Shown one piece after another: positions 45,842-52,502 of a stretch of 64,000 bases of DNA (the stretch's first letter is position 1; every line of letters starts with the position of its first letter). The DNA is from Bacteroidales bacterium (GTDB lineage Bacteria; Bacteroidota; Bacteroidia; Bacteroidales; CG2-30-32-10). Position numbers and translations under genes: made by a program. The DNA is taken from NCBI GenBank assembly GCA_035353855.1, contig DAOQAK010000011.1:10406-74405 (forward strand). Direction: 5' to 3'. The notes under the pieces were generated by a model. It saw only the letters and a program-made list of their open reading frames with translations. It did not search any database and was not told the origin of the DNA.

Positions 45842-47605
45842 ATGGTAAAGAAATCAAATCAAAATAAAGCTCAAGTTAAAACAAAATCTTCATCTTCTAA
45901 AATAATAGATTTTAATTACGATAAATATAAAGCAGCGAATGCCAATAAATTTTTGATTATAGCTATTTTATTATTTTGTATTTTTCTTTTAAGTGTTTTC
46001 AAAAATATTTCTTATCCGTTATTTTGGGCTGATGAAGGCATGACTGCAATAGGTTCTGAAAGAGTTCTTGAATATGGATACCCAAAAGTTCACGACGGGA
46101 AAAATGTTTTCTACGATCTTAAACACAGTAATCCCAAATTAGGCATCAGCGAAAAAGATGATGCTTATGTAGGAGGCACCGGCTGGGGGCAATATTATTT
46201 TGGAACAATAGGGTATTTACTTGCCGAGGAAACAGATGACATTTATTTAAAAACTGCACTTTACCGGACAACCTTTGCTATTATAGGAATACTGGGATTA
46301 TTGTTAATTGGTTTTTTTATTTCAAAAATTTTTCCTGATAATTTTTCACGATTTGCTTTTATAACGCTTTTCTTATTACTTGAATTGATGTCGGTTTCAT
46401 TAGCAATGTTATTAAGGGAAGCAAGGTATTATTCGCTGGTAATGTTTCTTTCGTGCTTGATTATTGGCATGTATTCAAGTTTTCGTTTTTACAAACCATT
46501 TAATAAAATAGTTTTTATTTGTATTGAATCAATTGCGTTGTGGATGCTTTTCTTTACATTCTCGCCGGTTTATTTTATTATTATTTTAACTGTTGCAATT
46601 TCAGAATTGATAATTTTTGTTTATCAAAGTTTTATTTCGGGATTTATTTCTTCGGCAAAAAAAGCGCTGCCAGTAATTTGTTCTTTAGCCATTGCATTGA
46701 TTGGTGTTTATCCGTTTCTTTCCTATTTTAAAACATTTGAAATATCAAAGGCCATGAATGAATTTTGTGGTTATAACAATCTTATGTATTGGGATAATTT
46801 TAAAATTGTTTTTGATTATTTTAAAAAATTCGAGTTGCTGTTTTTTGCAATAATATTGAAAATATTTTTAGTGTTCCATATTAAAAAAATATTAAATAAA
46901 AAATCGGCACTATTTTATATTTCCAATTTTCTGACATTGTTTTTTATTGTTTTTATATTTGCTATCGGACGAATCCCTAATTTCATTTATACCCGCTATA
47001 TCATATACCTGCAGCCAATCCTGGCTATTATAATTATTCTTGATTTTTTTATGATTTTAAAAGAATATTCGGTAAACAGTACAAAACTTATTAATACTAA
47101 AATGATGATACTCATTATACTTTTTGCAGGAATGTATATTTTTTCTTTATCGAAAAATATGAAATATATTAAAGGACACATTTATGAAATGAGCCATCAA
47201 TACAAGGGCCCGCTCGATTATACCATTCCATATATACAGGAAAAATTTCCTAAACCCGACACACTGGTTATTGCTGCCAATTACGAAGAGCCATCGTATA
47301 TGTATTATTTAAAAAGTAAGGTAATAATTGGTTTTACGGGAAACAACCTTGCTGAAGATTCATTGGTTACTCCTGATATTATTGCTTACCGGAAAACATG
47401 GAATAATTATGAGAAGGTATTTAATGGCTTTCTTATGAAATCGGAATATGAAAAAATCTCATTTCCTGTGTACGATGGTTGTGTGAATAACATTCCTGAA
47501 TTGAACTTTAAGCCAATGTTCAATCATAAATTCAAAATACTATTTCCTGAAAACGACGATTTTGCGGCTTGGTTATTTGTAAGAAAAAAACTATTTCAAC
47601 ACTAA
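45842..47605 (+). CDS. Polytopic membrane protein, possibly GT-C fold (ArnT/PMT-like) glycosyltransferase
   Basis: 587 aa, more than 10 TM helices. An acidic WADEG motif in the first extracytoplasmic loop is reminiscent of GT-C enzymes. The functional call is weak. Confidence 0.5.
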   Translation: MVKKSNQNKAQVKTKSSSSKIIDFNYDKYKAANANKFLIIAILLFCIFLLSVFKNISYPLFWADEGMTAIGSERVLEYGYPKVHDGKNVFYDLKHSNPKLGISEKDDAYVGGTGWGQYYFGTIGYLLAEETDDIYLKTALYRTTFAIIGILGLLLIGFFISKIFPDNFSRFAFITLFLLLELMSVSLAMLLREARYYSLVMFLSCLIIGMYSSFRFYKPFNKIVFICIESIALWMLFFTFSPVYFIIILTVAISELIIFVYQSFISGFISSAKKALPVICSLAIALIGVYPFLSYFKTFEISKAMNEFCGYNNLMYWDNFKIVFDYFKKFELLFFAIILKIFLVFHIKKILNKKSALFYISNFLTLFFIVFIFAIGRIPNFIYTRYIIYLQPILAIIIILDFFMILKEYSVNSTKLINTKMMILIILFAGMYIFSLSKNMKYIKGHIYEMSHQYKGPLDYTIPYIQEKFPKPDTLVIAANYEEPSYMYYLKSKVIIGFTGNNLAEDSLVTPDIIAYRKTWNNYEKVFNGFLMKSEYEKISFPVYDGCVNNIPELNFKPMFNHKFKILFPENDDFAAWLFVRKKLFQH

Positions 47606-47673
47606 AATAATTTTTTTTAAAAATGTGTTGATTATATTTTAACTTTACTGGATGATAATTTGAGATAATATAT

Positions 47674-48594
47674 ATGACAGTAAGATTAGCAAAACCATTT
47701 TTAAAGTGGGCGGGTGGGAAAACTCAGTTAATTAAAGACATTGAGAAATCATTGCCTTATAAAATGACCAATACTGATTTCATTTACATTGAACCTTTTG
47801 TTGGCAGTGGTGCTGTTTTATTTTGGATGCTTAATAACTTTCCGAATTTAAAAAAAGCAATTATCAATGATATTAACGAAGACCTCATAAACACATATAA
47901 TATAATTGCATCAGAACCTAAAAAATTAATATCTTTTCTTAAAGTTTTTCAAAACGAATTTCATTCATTAGAAAATAACCCTGAAAAGAAAAAAATTTAT
48001 TATTACCAGAAACGAGAATTGTATAATTCCAGAAATACTGATATTATTACTCAAGCAGCATTATTTATTTTTTTAAACAGAACTTGTTTTAACGGGCTTT
48101 ATCGGGTAAATAAAAATAATTTATTTAATGTTCCAATGGGTTCATATAAAAAACCCACTATTTGTGATGAAGAAAATATATTAGTTGTTAGTAAAGCACT
48201 ACAGAAAGTTGAAATTCTCAGCGGCGATTTTGAACAAACATTAAAATATGCTAAAGAAAATTCATTCTTTTATTTCGATCCACCATATAAACCATTAAGC
48301 AATACTTCAAGTTTTAATTCATATGCAAAAGATGATTTTAATGACGATGAACAAATACGTCTTAGAAACTTTTGTATAAAAATTGAAAAGCAAGGACATA
48401 AATGGATGCTCAGTAATTCCGATGTTAAAGGAAAAAACATCAACGATAATTTTTTTGATGATATTTATTCTGATTTTTTAATTTCAAGGGTCAAAGCCAA
48501 AAGAAACATCAACGCAAATGCTGATAAACGCGGACAATTAAATGAATTGTTAATTACAAATTACAACTATGAACAAACTTTGCGCACTGCTTAA
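47674..48594 (+). CDS. Dam/DpnM-family N6-adenine DNA methyltransferase (GATC class)
   Basis: 306 aa. PFLKWAGGK, EPFVGSGAV (SAM motif) and FYFDPPY (catalytic DPPY). Confidence 0.93.
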   Translation: MTVRLAKPFLKWAGGKTQLIKDIEKSLPYKMTNTDFIYIEPFVGSGAVLFWMLNNFPNLKKAIINDINEDLINTYNIIASEPKKLISFLKVFQNEFHSLENNPEKKKIYYYQKRELYNSRNTDIITQAALFIFLNRTCFNGLYRVNKNNLFNVPMGSYKKPTICDEENILVVSKALQKVEILSGDFEQTLKYAKENSFFYFDPPYKPLSNTSSFNSYAKDDFNDDEQIRLRNFCIKIEKQGHKWMLSNSDVKGKNINDNFFDDIYSDFLISRVKAKRNINANADKRGQLNELLITNYNYEQTLRTA

Positions 48595-49468
48595 TCTGAA
48601 TAACGACGATGAGCTTTTCGATAAAATTACGCAAAGCTTTAAAGAAAAAATTACTACTTGGGATTACTTTGTAAATTGGAAAAAAGTTCTTATTAATGTT
48701 GAGCTATTTGAGAAAGAATTAAATATACTTAACTATTTAATTGGAAAAACTAATTTACGTGAAGAAGCATATAATTTAATAAATAAATATCCCGAGGTAA
48801 TAAGGGCAATTCCTACGTTATTGGCTATTAGAGAAGGTGCATTAGAAATTCTTATTGATTCTAAAAATTTTAAATACAAAAATTTAAACTTTTTTGATCT
48901 GAATATAGACAAGGAAGAATTGAATAACTATGTTGATTTTATTATAAATACAGGATTAGGTGAAATCTTATCTGACAGGAAAATAAAAAACCTTGTTGAT
49001 TATGTTACCGGTGTTGAAGTTGGGTTGGATAGCAATGGCAGAAAAAACAGAGGTGGCACTTTAATGGAAGGCTTAGTGGAAGTTTTTGTTTCAGAAACCT
49101 GCCAAAATTTAGGATTAGAATATATGTCTCAAGCCTCGTCAGAGAAAATTAAAAAACAATGGGGGTTAGAAGTTGTAATTGATAAATCATCAAGGAAGCT
49201 TGATTTCGCAATAAATAAAAAAGGAAAACTTTATTTTATTGAATGCAATTTTTATGGAGGAGGAGGTTCAAAACTAAAATCAACCGCAACAGAATATATA
49301 GAAATGAACCGATATTGGAATAAACAAGGAATTGAATTTATTTGGATTACCGATGGTGCCGGTTGGCGATCGACTTTAAAACCTTTAAGAGAATATTTTG
49401 ATAAAGCAGATTATTTGCTGAATTTAGAAATATTGAAAGATAGTATATTAAATAAAATTTTACATTAA
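48569..49468 (+). CDS. DpnII/MboI-family type II restriction endonuclease (GATC)
   Basis: 299 aa. Block NLVDYVTGVEVGLDSNGRKNRGG...FIECNFYGGGGSKLKSTA...FIWITDGAGW is nearly collinear with my recollection of R.DpnII (NLVDYVTGVEVGMDTNGRKNR...EVNFYSGSGSKLNETA...FMWITDGQGW). Overlaps the MTase gene by 26 nt. Confidence 0.9.
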   Translation: MNKLCALLNLNNDDELFDKITQSFKEKITTWDYFVNWKKVLINVELFEKELNILNYLIGKTNLREEAYNLINKYPEVIRAIPTLLAIREGALEILIDSKNFKYKNLNFFDLNIDKEELNNYVDFIINTGLGEILSDRKIKNLVDYVTGVEVGLDSNGRKNRGGTLMEGLVEVFVSETCQNLGLEYMSQASSEKIKKQWGLEVVIDKSSRKLDFAINKKGKLYFIECNFYGGGGSKLKSTATEYIEMNRYWNKQGIEFIWITDGAGWRSTLKPLREYFDKADYLLNLEILKDSILNKILH

Positions 49469-50334
49469 TGGCTTGTAAAAAAGAACATAAAGAATCAGAT
49501 TTAATTATAAAAGACTTACCTATTAGTCAAGGAGGATTTGGAAGACATAAATGTGCTTGTTGTGCTTATGAAAAAGGAGTAGAAAATGGTAATAAGAGAA
49601 TTTTAAATTTTAATCTAGAAGATTTTATTTCAAATTTAGAAGAAAGTCAAAAAGGCAATCAAAGACATAAAAGTGCTGTAGAAGCATATACACTGGGGTT
49701 TTTTCATGGATTAAATGGGTCAAACAATCATCTCGTCATCAAAGATAGACAGAGAATGGCTAATCAAATGAGAGATTTTGGTTTATATATGGTTGCTAAA
49801 GGAGTTGTTAATGCTACTTTCTCTGAACAAGGAAGTCCATATTCATATGCGATGGGAGTAGTTCATGTTGCAAACGGCTTTGAGATATTAATAAAAGCTA
49901 AAATAGTTGAGGAACATCCTTTGTTAGTTTTTAATAAGATACCAAAAGAAACGAATATTGTTGATGGCAATATTAAATTTGAAGATCTTCTTGAGCATGG
50001 ACAAACAATAATGTATTCCGAATTACCTGATAGGCTATGGGCAACAACTGGTTATAAAATAACACCAATTAACCTTTTTAACGAATTTGGCAAAATAAGA
50101 AATCAAATAATTCATTTTGCGGTACCTGAAATTCCACTTAGTGACCTTACTCTTAATTTTACATTTCAAATAATAGAAAAAGCTATTAATGAATGGTGGG
50201 GTACAACTATACTTGAATATGCACAAGAATATGATGAAGATTATTGTGAATATGTTTTTGAAGAATTGAAAAGATTAAATATTACAATTAATTATAAGCT
50301 TAACGAAAATGGAGATTTAGTTAAGAAACAATAA
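49468..50334 (+). CDS. Uncharacterised protein, candidate HEPN-like (RNxxxH) effector with duplicated N-terminal RHK motif
   Basis: 288 aa. The ATG overlaps the endonuclease stop (TAATG at 49466-49470). GRHKCACCAYEKG (aa 25-37) and QRHKSAVEAYTLG (aa 65-77). RNQIIH at aa 211-216 (50098-50115). Confidence 0.8.
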   Translation: MACKKEHKESDLIIKDLPISQGGFGRHKCACCAYEKGVENGNKRILNFNLEDFISNLEESQKGNQRHKSAVEAYTLGFFHGLNGSNNHLVIKDRQRMANQMRDFGLYMVAKGVVNATFSEQGSPYSYAMGVVHVANGFEILIKAKIVEEHPLLVFNKIPKETNIVDGNIKFEDLLEHGQTIMYSELPDRLWATTGYKITPINLFNEFGKIRNQIIHFAVPEIPLSDLTLNFTFQIIEKAINEWWGTTILEYAQEYDEDYCEYVFEELKRLNITINYKLNENGDLVKKQ

Positions 50335-50423
50335 ATCTTGAACCATATTTTAAACCCCAAGATAAAGACATATATTTTCTACATGGAGACACAATGGAGC
50401 TTTTACCATGGTTTGAACATATA

Positions 50424-51026
50424 CTAATCCAAATACCATAAAAGGGAATTAACCTCTTTAAATTTTTTATGTTTTTTGTTTTCGTAATTGGTGTATTTAG
50501 CTGCTGGAGGTTGTCTACTACATACACTCATACATAAATTATCTATTTCTTTTGAACTATCAATGAACTGTCTAATCCAACCCTGATAAAATAATGTAGG
50601 TGGGTCATAATGACTTTCTCCTGTATAATTATAATCTTGCTCTATTATAAATAATTGGCTTAGTACTGCAATTATTGATATTGGGTTCAGCTCATGTTCA
50701 AATTCTTCTTTTCGCAATGATTTAATAGCATCGATAGGATCTTCACGATAAAATATTTTATCAAATGCTATTAAAAGTTTATTCTTTAAATCGGGTCTTG
50801 AACGAACTCTTAAATGTAAATCAATCATAACTCTAAGATGATTGGGTCTAAACTCCCTCTCCCCTTCTTTTATAAAAATCTGGAAGTTTTTCTTAATATC
50901 ATAATTCTTAAACTCTTTGTTTGGTCTTACCACAAATATTTCTGTCCCTTGGTCTCTATGGAAAACAGTTGGTGTTTCAAATTTGATTTTTTTTATTTTT
51001 CCAAAAATTTCTTTATAGTTAGCCAT
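50424..51026 (-). CDS. Uncharacterised 200-aa protein co-transcribed with a C-protein-like regulator (possible restriction endonuclease or toxin)
   Basis: The ATG at 51026 directly follows the TAG of the HTH gene. No motif recognised. Confidence 0.7.
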   Translation of the reverse strand: MANYKEIFGKIKKIKFETPTVFHRDQGTEIFVVRPNKEFKNYDIKKNFQIFIKEGEREFRPNHLRVMIDLHLRVRSRPDLKNKLLIAFDKIFYREDPIDAIKSLRKEEFEHELNPISIIAVLSQLFIIEQDYNYTGESHYDPPTLFYQGWIRQFIDSSKEIDNLCMSVCSRQPPAAKYTNYENKKHKKFKEVNSLLWYLD

Positions 51027-51242
51027 CTATGTAAAATTTAATAATTTAGAAACACTTATGTTAAAGGTTTTAGCAAAAGCTTCAATATTTCTTAATGACA
51101 AATTTCTTTCGCCTCTTTCAATCATCCCTATATATGTTCTATGAAAACCTGTTTTATCAGCAAGTTCTTCCTGGCTCCAACTTTCTTTAAGTCGCAATTC
51201 TCTTATCCGACTACCAAACTTTTTTACAATATCATTTTTCAT
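51027..51242 (-). CDS. XRE-type HTH regulator resembling R-M controller (C) proteins
   Basis: 71 aa from ATG 51242. RIRELRLKESWSQEELADKTGFHRTYIGMIERGERNLSLRNI matches the C-protein signature (S-Q-E-x-L-A...H-R-T-Y-x-G-x-x-E-R-G-x-R-N-x-S-L). Confidence 0.85.
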   Translation of the reverse strand: MKNDIVKKFGSRIRELRLKESWSQEELADKTGFHRTYIGMIERGERNLSLRNIEAFAKTFNISVSKLLNFT

Positions 51243-51264
51243 CTTGCAAAAATGAAATTTTATA

Positions 51265-51333
51265 TACAAAAAGTCTACATACAATTAGTATCATTTTAAT
51301 TTTATTTATATATTTGCAAAACTAAAAAGTCAT
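51265..51333. promoter_or_regulatory. Candidate control region: two AAAAAGTC repeats plus overlapping face-to-face TAnnTTTG boxes
   Basis: AAAAAGTC at 51268-51275 and 51324-51331. Plus-strand TATATTTG at 51309-51316. Minus-strand TAGTTTTG (plus strand caaaacta) at 51317-51324. The minus-strand reading ATGACTTTTTAGTT resembles a GACT...AGTC C-box half-palindrome. Confidence 0.35.
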
Positions 51334-51337
51334 ATAT

Positions 51338-51572
51338 ATGAACGACATAATATCATCTACGTTAAACCCTAAAGAGCTATTAAAAATTCACCTATCCTTA
51401 CAAGTAGGAATTATAAAATTCAAGTATTAGTTGATGCACTAAGACTTGTATCTTCAGATATAATAAAAAAAAATTATTAATACCTGATGGTTGTGAAAAA
51501 TATGGCTTCGTTGAAGGAAAGCATAATTTAAGTATATTGTTGCACTTTTTAGCTGATATGTTAGAAGAATGA
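51338..51572 (+). pseudogene. Possible decayed small ORF immediately upstream of, and stop-start overlapped (ATGA) with, the DpnA-like methyltransferase
   Basis: ATG 51338 opens 30 codons, with the stop at 51428-51430. A second frame is open 51373-51480 (...VLVDALRLVSSDIIKKNY*). A third frame, reached through an A9 run (51465-51473), reads KKKLLIPDGCEKYGFVEGKHNLSILLHFLADMLEE* and ends at 51570-51572, overlapping the MTase ATG at 51569. Confidence 0.3.
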
Positions 51573-52447
51573 TTAAACCTTTTTATAATTCTACCGATAA
51601 ATCATTTTATCTCCTTCAAGGAGATTCATTTGTATTATTACCTCAATTTGAACATAAGTTCGATATTGTATTTGCAGATCCTCCATATTTCCTTTCAAAT
51701 AATGGATTAACTATAAACAGCGGAAAAGTAGTAAGCGTTAATAAAGGCAAATGGGACAAATCGCATGGCTTTGATTATATAAATAATTTCAACAAAAAAT
51801 GGCTTTCTTTAGTTCGTGATAAAATGAAAGAAAACGCTACAATATGGATTAGCGGTACATTACATAATATTTTTTCAATAGGTCAATTGCTAACAGAATT
51901 AGATTTTAAAATATTAAATATAATAACTTGGGAAAAGAATAATCCTCCGCCTAACTTTTCATGTCGCTATTTTACACACTCTACAGAGCAAATTATCTGG
52001 GCTCGTAAAAATGAAAAAGTTCCTCATTACTTCAATTACGAATTAATGAAACAACTTAATGGCAACAGGCAAATGAAAGATGTTTGGAAATTACCTGCAA
52101 TTGCACCTTGGGAAAAATCATGCGGAAAACATCCTACACAAAAACCATTATCAGTATTAACAAGAATAATACTTGCTTCAACTAAACCCGATGCATGGGT
52201 GTTAGATCCATTTACAGGCAGCAGCACCACAGGCATTGCTGCAAACCTTGCAAATAGACGCTTTCTGGGAATTGATTCAGAAATAGAATATCTTGAAATA
52301 AGTAAAAAAAGAAAACTTGAAATAGAAAATAAAACTATTGCAGCAAAATATAAAGAGAAAATAAAAGGGTTTAATAATAAAAATGAACTTGAACTTTTCT
52401 TATGTGCCGAACCTAAAGCAGAATATAAAACAAATTTGAAATTATAA
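51569..52447 (+). CDS. DpnA/M.MboIC-like beta-class N6-adenine DNA methyltransferase
   Basis: 292 aa. FADPPYFLSNNG...VVSVNKGKWDK...ITWEKNNPPPNFSCRYFTHSTEQIIWARKN...GKHPTQKP...DPFTGSSTTG is almost collinear with my recollection of DpnA (FADPPYFLSNGG, ITWQKTNPAPNLSCRYFTHSTETILWARKN, GKHPTQKP). Confidence 0.92.
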   Translation: MIKPFYNSTDKSFYLLQGDSFVLLPQFEHKFDIVFADPPYFLSNNGLTINSGKVVSVNKGKWDKSHGFDYINNFNKKWLSLVRDKMKENATIWISGTLHNIFSIGQLLTELDFKILNIITWEKNNPPPNFSCRYFTHSTEQIIWARKNEKVPHYFNYELMKQLNGNRQMKDVWKLPAIAPWEKSCGKHPTQKPLSVLTRIILASTKPDAWVLDPFTGSSTTGIAANLANRRFLGIDSEIEYLEISKKRKLEIENKTIAAKYKEKIKGFNNKNELELFLCAEPKAEYKTNLKL

Positions 52448-52502
52448 TCTATTATAATATTGATAGAATTAAATTGCTAAACCTCATCAAACAATAAAAA
52501 CC

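Follow-up and report, generated by a model that had tools for sequence, protein, structure and literature searches.

What is encoded by a gene whose product resembles no annotated family, when that gene is coupled to a putative restriction-modification (R-M) controller gene and stands divergent from the gene of a DNA methyltransferase (MTase)? The question is raised by a 64,000-nucleotide (nt) stretch of DNA from a Bacteroidales bacterium (GenBank assembly GCA_035353855.1, contig DAOQAK010000011.1, positions 10,406 to 74,405), which is referred to here as the window. On its minus strand, an open reading frame (ORF) for a protein of 200 amino acids (aa), hereafter u200 (50424-51026), follows a gene for a 71-aa helix-turn-helix (HTH) protein (51027-51242), the TAG stop codon of the latter (51027-51029) directly abutting the ATG of the former (51024-51026). 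An earlier note on this DNA had described these ORFs, their start codons and several octamers in the intervening spacer, and a check against the sequence confirmed all of its coordinates and strings; it left the 200-aa protein as a possible restriction endonuclease (REase), a toxin or something new. With moderate confidence, the two genes are interpreted here as the restriction half of a type II R-M system controlled by a C protein, in which u200 would be an REase of a new, unannotated family that probably cuts unmethylated GATC. Of the features by which an REase may be recognised, adjacency to an MTase gene and avoidance of the predicted target were both found for u200, and a recognisable nuclease core was not.

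The identity of the regulator is indicated by several matches. The 71-aa protein matches PF01381 (8.7e-17) and, over residues 1-71 of 71, the PADLOC model Control_protein (PDLC03665, 1.2e-22), and its closest solved relatives in the Protein Data Bank (PDB) are C.BclI (3.8e-14), C.AhdI (4e-12) and C.Esp1396I (1e-8). It is a small, single-domain HTH protein of the XRE type, its gene is co-oriented with, coupled to and upstream of the putative REase gene, and it is accompanied by a 35-bp C-box. Judged by the full-length PADLOC match and the C-protein relatives of known structure, it is a genuine R-M controller (C) protein, as had been claimed from its HTH signature. An alternative TTG start, which would yield an 85-aa product, was rejected because the start codons of the homologues align with the ATG at 51242. 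The proposed layout, a C-R operon divergent from an MTase gene as in PvuII-type systems, was likewise upheld, the C gene and u200 gene being kept in this order, divergent from the MTase gene, in related Bacteroidota loci (L001, L006, L007, L021, L078 and L082, where L numbers denote the homologous loci fetched for comparison).

When the DNA preceding the homologous HTH genes of related loci was aligned, one conserved block emerged, the 35-bp C-box (51260-51294, minus strand), which reads ATG-ATACT-AAT-TGTAT-GTA-GACTT-TTT-GTATA-TAA on the C strand and ends 17 nt from the C ATG. Its distal operator, ATACTAATTGTAT (51279-51291), is a perfect palindrome, and its proximal operator, AGACTTTTTGTAT (51264-51276), is an imperfect copy joined to the distal one by GT. 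The layout of the C-box is that of the 35-bp C.PvuII-like motif reported by Sorokin et al. (PMC2632904), and the block is, by this architecture, a PvuII-type double operator and the predicted binding site of the C protein. Sequence and start-codon distance are kept in L006, L007, L008 and L082, which are of the Bacteroidota type, and equally spaced boxes occur in L024 (a Methanosarcinales contig) and L046 (a Planctomycetia contig; ATACTTATAGTATCGTAGACAATAAGTAG), so that three phyla are represented; L001, L021 and L078 carry an ACAC-N5-GTGT variant. No further C-box-like site was found in the window, and a second C-box controlling the neighbouring DpnII operon was rejected on that ground. The octamer AAAAAGTC, which occurs at 51268-51275 and 51324-51331, had been likened in the earlier note to C-box half-sites. 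The proximal copy lies inside the proximal operator. The distal copy (GACTTTTTAGT) lies outside the conserved box and is without a counterpart at the homologous position in L006, L008 and L021. The word itself is not enriched (5 occurrences in the window, 6.8 expected), and the chance of finding two copies within 57 bp was estimated, post hoc, at ~1-2%.

The gene divergent from this operon (51569-52447, plus strand) encodes a beta-class (N6_N4) DNA adenine MTase (PF01555 at 8.7e-57; PADLOC MTase_II at 1.7e-93) that shares 55.6% identity with M.LlaDCHIB of L. lactis plasmid pSRQ700 and only 40% with CcrM of S. meliloti. On pSRQ700, the M.LlaDCHIB gene sits between the genes of a Dam-type MTase and a DpnII-type REase, and in the window a DpnM-like MTase gene lies 3 kb from the N6_N4 MTase gene. 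The divergent enzyme is, by these comparisons, a DpnA-type MTase, in agreement with its first description as DpnA-like.

It is the genomic context of u200 that strongly supports the earlier guess of an unrecognised REase, an assignment under which u200 would cleave DNA. The context was recorded in 75 places, namely the window and 74 fetched loci (69 genome loci and others), the fetched loci being scored with the window's own proteins. A DNA MTase gene lies within 2.5 kb of u200 in 71 of the 75 places (~95%), and the partner is usually convergent with u200 and less than 100 bp away. In 24 places the partner is a D12 (DpnM-like) MTase only, in 25 an N6_N4 (DpnA-like) MTase only, and in 18 both are found; the remaining eight comprise four with a third kind of MTase directly downstream, two truncated contigs and two Lachnospiraceae loci without an MTase. 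In the third kind, motif I (FxGxGT) precedes HPPY (L039 5842-6798 and L057 5626-7227, and also L041 and L050). Since clustering of all flanking ORFs yielded no other family in more than eight loci, the conserved unit consists of the u200 gene and a methylase. An HTH gene stands beside u200 in a minority of loci only, in contrast to the MTase gene. Where a small DNA-binding regulator does precede u200, it differs between lineages, being a C protein, an XRE HTH protein (L067) or a winged-HTH protein (L009, L028 and L063). The archaeal winged-HTH genes are MarR-like, encode 84-94 aa and overlap the start of u200 (L009 4754-5008, L028 1463-1747, L063 4751-5005), as the XRE HTH gene of L067 also does, and this archaeal gene seems to take the place of the bacterial C protein. 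The presence of such upstream regulators is consistent with a toxic gene that needs controlled expression.

The partner MTases also point to a target. The D12 partners show 35-50% full-length identity to DpnM of S. pneumoniae (PDB 2DPM; E down to 2.5e-84) and are as close to it as, or closer than, the DpnII-associated D12 MTase of the window (39.6%), and in every locus except L012 the N6_N4 partner scores better with M.LlaDCHIB than with CcrM, by a margin that is narrow in a DPANN subset. LlaDCHI methylates GmATC (PMC4132740). Members of the u200 family whose partner is a D12 MTase only are interleaved with those whose partner is an N6_N4 MTase only, at identities of up to 80.6%, with a mean identity of 63.8% between partner classes compared with 61.8% and 67.4% within them; the type of partner is shuffled relative to u200 kinship, so that one target must be protected by both types of MTase. 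In each class of u200 loci, no other 4-bp palindrome is as depleted as GATC. The ratio of observed to expected GATC occurrences (O/E) is 0.64 (z = -13) in the 50 loci in which u200 is the sole nuclease candidate, with 96% of loci below 1, and 0.52 in the window (84 observed, 162 expected). Together, these observations suggest that the target of u200 is probably unmethylated GATC. A GANTC (CcrM/HinfI-like) target was rejected, because the N6_N4 partners are nearer to DpnA/LlaDCHIB, the D12 partners resemble DpnM and the window shows no depletion of GANTC (O/E 1.02). Two other palindromes, CTAG (O/E 0.47) and GGCC (0.56), are also low in the window, and the avoidance of GGCC may reflect another restriction system in this genome.

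The u200 family itself is compact, highly conserved and unannotated, and matches neither a domain model nor a solved fold. In line with the lack of a recognisable motif noted earlier for the 200-aa ORF, u200 has no match in Pfam, NCBIfam, PADLOC, PHROGs or the PDB sequences when searched as a single sequence, nor in the PDB by profile search. A collection of 5.8 billion proteins holds 799 homologues, of which all those with a source name are called 'hypothetical protein'; they belong mostly to DPANN archaea, bacteria of the Candidate Phyla Radiation (CPR), Omnitrophota, Bacteroidota and Firmicutes, and identity is ~60% among Flavobacterium, Altiarchaeales, Patescibacteria and Phycisphaerae. 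An exhaustive hidden Markov model search of 1.84 billion representatives returned 111 u200 clusters only, none of them with a Pfam domain in the scan. In one distant member, P0231, a u200-like domain is fused to a repeat module outside Pfam. Searches with tblastn gave no match for u200 in plasmid and phage collections, and none in phages for a distant family member. Across the superfamily, down to ~20% identity, H63, E129 and Q130 are invariant and P61, L70, Q124, L125 and R152 are nearly so. The pattern formed by H63, E129, Q130 and R152 looks like an active site, and catalysis is suggested by the invariance of a His and a Glu-Gln pair in an otherwise divergent family.

AlphaFold2 models of the window u200 and of the distant member P0174 (m9abd9eb641d1) have predicted local distance difference test (pLDDT) scores of 91.8 and 92.7, respectively, and show the same order of elements, with a four-stranded sheet at the N-terminus and a helical bundle after it. 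The sole structural neighbour, found with model m23125dbdeab5 in BFVD, belongs to Streptomyces phage BillNye and is an uncharacterised protein of 198 aa (A0A2L1IVY4; template modelling (TM) score 0.52, E 9e-4). In a Foldseek search, the local matches of the N-terminal beta domain of the P0174 model to methyl-CpG-binding domains (MBD2, MBD3 and MeCP2) were weak and not significant, with a target-normalised TM score of ~0.45, a root-mean-square deviation of ~3 Å over ~50 residues and E values of 1-3. These matches offer a lead, and no more, that the N-terminal domain may read methylation state.

Several results weigh against u200 being a GATC nuclease. The profile comparison and structure prediction that had been suggested as a check of the 200-aa protein disclosed no nuclease core: no PD-(D/E)xK, HNH, GIY-YIG, PLD or half-pipe core was recognised by library and fold searches, and Foldseek found no solved-structure match in the PDB for either of the two confident models (best E 0.14 and 0.27). 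Profile alignment of u200 with the DpnII and MutH-like families by hhalign gave probabilities below 1%, and u200 was rejected both as a diverged DpnII (hhalign probability 0.5% against the DpnII alignment; no PF04556 match) and as a diverged MutH (<1% against MutH-like families). The two Lachnospiraceae loci (L066 and L067) have no MTase nearby, and the avoidance of GATC could be due to other GATC enzymes elsewhere in the genomes that carry u200. Finally, a second nuclease-like gene stands beside u200 in 19 of 68 non-redundant loci (~28%), so that u200 could be an accessory rather than the cutter.

These adjacent genes are of several kinds. A DpnII-family gene adjoins u200 in six loci including the window, a PDDEXK_11-like gene in four (in L008 it lies between the C gene and u200) and another PD-ExK-like gene in four more. 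MutH-family genes also occur, in L021 downstream of u200 and in four Firmicutes loci directly ahead of it in the same orientation. In the Firmicutes loci, the MutH-family (PF02976) genes lie 15-67 bp upstream of u200 (L017 4312-4965, L019 2381-3037, L020 2392-3090, L044 4243-4887), and in L019 and L044 they are preceded by a gene for a 74-77-aa XRE HTH protein. The island of L078 unites u200, DpnII and MutH-family genes. It is conceivable that u200 serves GATC systems not as an endonuclease but as a methylation reader, a DNA-binding subunit or a modulator of the nuclease or methylase, a role with which the missing nuclease fold, these neighbours, the C operon of L008 and the weak, non-significant MBD-like matches of the N-terminal domain would agree. 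Such a role is nevertheless judged unlikely. In 50 of the 68 non-redundant loci, u200 and its MTase or MTases are the sole conserved genes; the extra nucleases stem from at least four unrelated families, so that there is no constant partner for u200 to assist; a C protein with a classical C-box typically controls the toxic gene itself; and the invariant His and Glu-Gln residues of this divergent family suggest catalysis. With u200 taken as the endonuclease, the adjacent nucleases are read as isospecific enzymes stacked under shared methylation, at no cost to the host.

The arrangement of promoters around the C-box bears on how the operon would be timed. A plus-strand octamer, TATATTTG (51309-51316), and a minus-strand octamer, TAGTTTTG (51317-51324), both fit TAnnTTTG, a pattern that is not enriched in the window (70 occurrences, 109 expected). 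A further box, cATTTTTG (51247-51254, minus strand), lies between the C-box and the C ATG, 4 nt from the latter, and an nnnnTTTG-N4/5-start codon arrangement is found in five of eight Bacteroidota-type loci (the window, L008, L001, L078 and L082). The octamer TATATTTG, which is located 14 nt past the distal end of the C-box and points away from it, is identical at the equivalent place in L006, and a TTTGCAA symmetry is common to this box and the C-side box. In a sigma-70 promoter scan, matches were no more frequent than in shuffled sequence, the sigma-70 model being unsuited to Bacteroidota. The C-side box suggests a -7 element of the C/REase promoter and, as it sits 4 nt from the ATG, a leaderless or near-leaderless C transcript. 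The C transcript of PvuII is likewise leaderless. The plus-strand octamer is the predicted -7 element for the MTase gene and the small ORF that precedes it. Because the C-side box and TATATTTG recur and TAGTTTTG is not conserved, the two promoters are most likely divergent and back-to-back, flanking the C-box, and the recurrence of a box 4-5 nt from the C start would put the C/R promoter downstream of the C-box, which is the order in PvuII-type systems.

This placement differs from that in the earlier note, in which the abutting octamers were read as -7 boxes facing each other, to be used by one polymerase at a time, and the AAAAAGTC copies as half-sites, forming a mutually exclusive switch between the MTase and the C/effector genes. 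Both octamers are indeed present as described and both fit the consensus; the second AAAAAGTC follows closely on the plus-strand box, about where the MTase-side transcript would be expected to begin, and could be a lineage-specific weak half-operator, given the low chance estimate for the pair. The switch is nonetheless regarded as very unlikely, as neither the TAGTTTTG box nor the distal AAAAAGTC is conserved in the long-spacer loci L006, L008 and L021, the conserved operator is elsewhere, at 51260-51294, and the -7-like box that does recur stands next to the C start. Still less credible is a toxin-antitoxin or abortive-infection pair, with an XRE antitoxin and a toxin unrelated to restriction, for which the small size and tight coupling of the gene pair, a weak similarity of the HTH protein to the Y4mF/HipB antitoxin model (at 2.7e-9, well short of the cut-off) and the presence of an HTH gene and u200 without an MTase in L067 might speak, but against which stand the lack of an HTH gene, and so of constant pairing, in most u200 loci, the MTase gene in ~95% of them, the R-M controllers that the HTH protein matches best, and the C-box architecture of the upstream site.

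For the C-controlled R-M system that is preferred here, the identity of the C protein, the place and conservation of the C-box, the near-obligate pairing of the u200 family with GATC-type MTases and the avoidance of GATC in host loci are established by the analysis. We infer that u200 cleaves DNA, that its target is GATC, where the promoters lie and a logic of activation followed by repression, all of which could be combined as follows. Dimers of the C protein would bind the 35-bp double operator just upstream of the C gene. Occupation of the distal palindrome would activate the weak promoter of the C/REase operon, and at high C concentration the imperfect proximal operator would be occupied in turn and the promoter repressed. 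The u200 protein would be translated from the same, probably leaderless, transcript as C, its ATG following immediately after the C stop codon, and control through the C-box would delay its expression until the DNA is methylated. The enzyme would then cut unmethylated GATC and be blocked by N6-adenine methylation from the DpnA-like and the neighbouring DpnM-like MTases, the divergent DpnA-type MTase presumably being the methylase half of the module.

C-protein-controlled type II restriction-modification is textbook knowledge, and the regulatory part of the locus is ordinary. As in the PvuII, AhdI, Esp1396I and BclI systems, an XRE-HTH controller gene lies directly upstream of, and is coupled to, the (putative) REase gene. 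The window further shares with these systems a 35-bp double operator with a perfect distal and an imperfect proximal palindrome and a GT joint, the position of the operator immediately before the C start, a divergent MTase gene and a predicted leaderless C transcript. It differs in its half-sites, which are ATAC/GTAT with an ACT-N3-(A/T)GT core instead of GACT/AGTC, and in its promoter elements, which are of the Bacteroidota -7 type. The unusual part is the enzyme: u200 is not related to PvuII, AhdI or Esp1396I, nor to any REase family that has been annotated. The u200 loci resemble the DpnII/MboI/LlaDCHI systems in using the same two MTase families (D12 DpnM-like and beta-class DpnA-like) and in a predicted GATC target that is avoided in host DNA, and many of them have exactly the content of a DpnII cassette, save that u200 replaces the DpnII REase. 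The 200-aa u200 protein, however, shows no sequence or profile similarity to PF04556 and has a different predicted fold, and the DpnII and LlaDCHI cassettes, unlike the window, lack a C protein; in the window, DpnII REase and u200 genes occur side by side. MutH is a PD-(D/E)xK enzyme. Like MutH/Sau3AI, u200 is tied to GATC methylation, with a MutH-family gene near it in the four Firmicutes loci and in L078, but it has no sequence, profile or fold similarity to MutH and shows no PD-(D/E)xK core.

Other features surround this module. The 326 bp between the C ATG (51242) and the MTase ATG (51569) are largely taken up by the frameshifted remnant of an ORF of ~77 aa (51338-51572, plus strand), which is intact in L006, L008 and L021, where its terminal ATGA overlaps the MTase start codon; L001 and L007 have no such ORF. 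By tblastn, the remnant falls into at least two frames (frame 2 at 51400-51459, frame 1 at 51468-51569), with one frame change at an A9 run (51465-51473), which could be due to genuine decay, to phase variation or to a mistake in the assembly. The product of the ~77-aa ORF has no Pfam match.

On the other side of u200, a Dam/DpnM-like D12 MTase gene (47674-48594, plus strand; PF02086 at 8.7e-65, TIGR00571 dam at 1.3e-89, 39.6% identity to DpnM, PDB 2DPM) overlaps the gene of a DpnII-family REase (48569-49468, plus strand; PF04556 at 6e-97), forming what is, by these matches, a complete DpnII-type GATC system (47674-49468) beside the C/u200 operon. As the predicted specificity is the same, the neighbouring DpnM-like MTase should likewise protect against u200. 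The R-M island (47500-52500) has a G+C content of 0.27-0.30, compared with 0.34-0.38 in the flanks, which is consistent with horizontal acquisition. A gene for a 288-aa protein of unassigned function (49468-50334, plus strand) is translationally coupled to the DpnII REase gene through a TAATG overlap. The N-terminal double repeat of this protein, GxGRHKCxxCAY, matches phrog_3941 (1e-20) and also the C-terminus of P0231, whose N-terminus is the distant u200-like domain (BLASTP E 1e-11), and the common repeat hints at a functional link to u200. Its C-terminal part has weak matches to the PADLOC models DUF3644, HEC-08 and PDC-S64. Genes of the 288-aa type are kept beside u200 in L001, L002 and L078, and in two of these loci a DndB-like (PF14072) gene, absent from the window, lies between the DpnII REase gene and the 288-aa-type gene (L001 2990-4582, L078 4977-6119).

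A bolder and more tentative proposal, held to be possible but rather doubtful, is that the u200 family constitutes a new structural and catalytic class of REases, with His63, Glu129 and Gln130 as candidate catalytic residues and without resemblance to any of the known nuclease superfamilies. Its members would recognise unmethylated GATC and be spread widely among DPANN, CPR and further uncultivated lineages. If u200 does cut GATC, a new nuclease architecture would be added to the handful known for restriction enzymes, and a small new GATC enzyme would become available for study. Some of the 'orphan' Dam-like methylases in DPANN, CPR and uncultivated genomes would then be parts of complete restriction systems (compare the archaeal survey PMC10609329). 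With two candidate GATC nucleases in the window and three in L078, isospecific stacking may be a defence strategy. The locus would thus combine what is most likely classical C-protein timing of a restriction gene with a widely transferred protein family that is predicted to restrict GATC.

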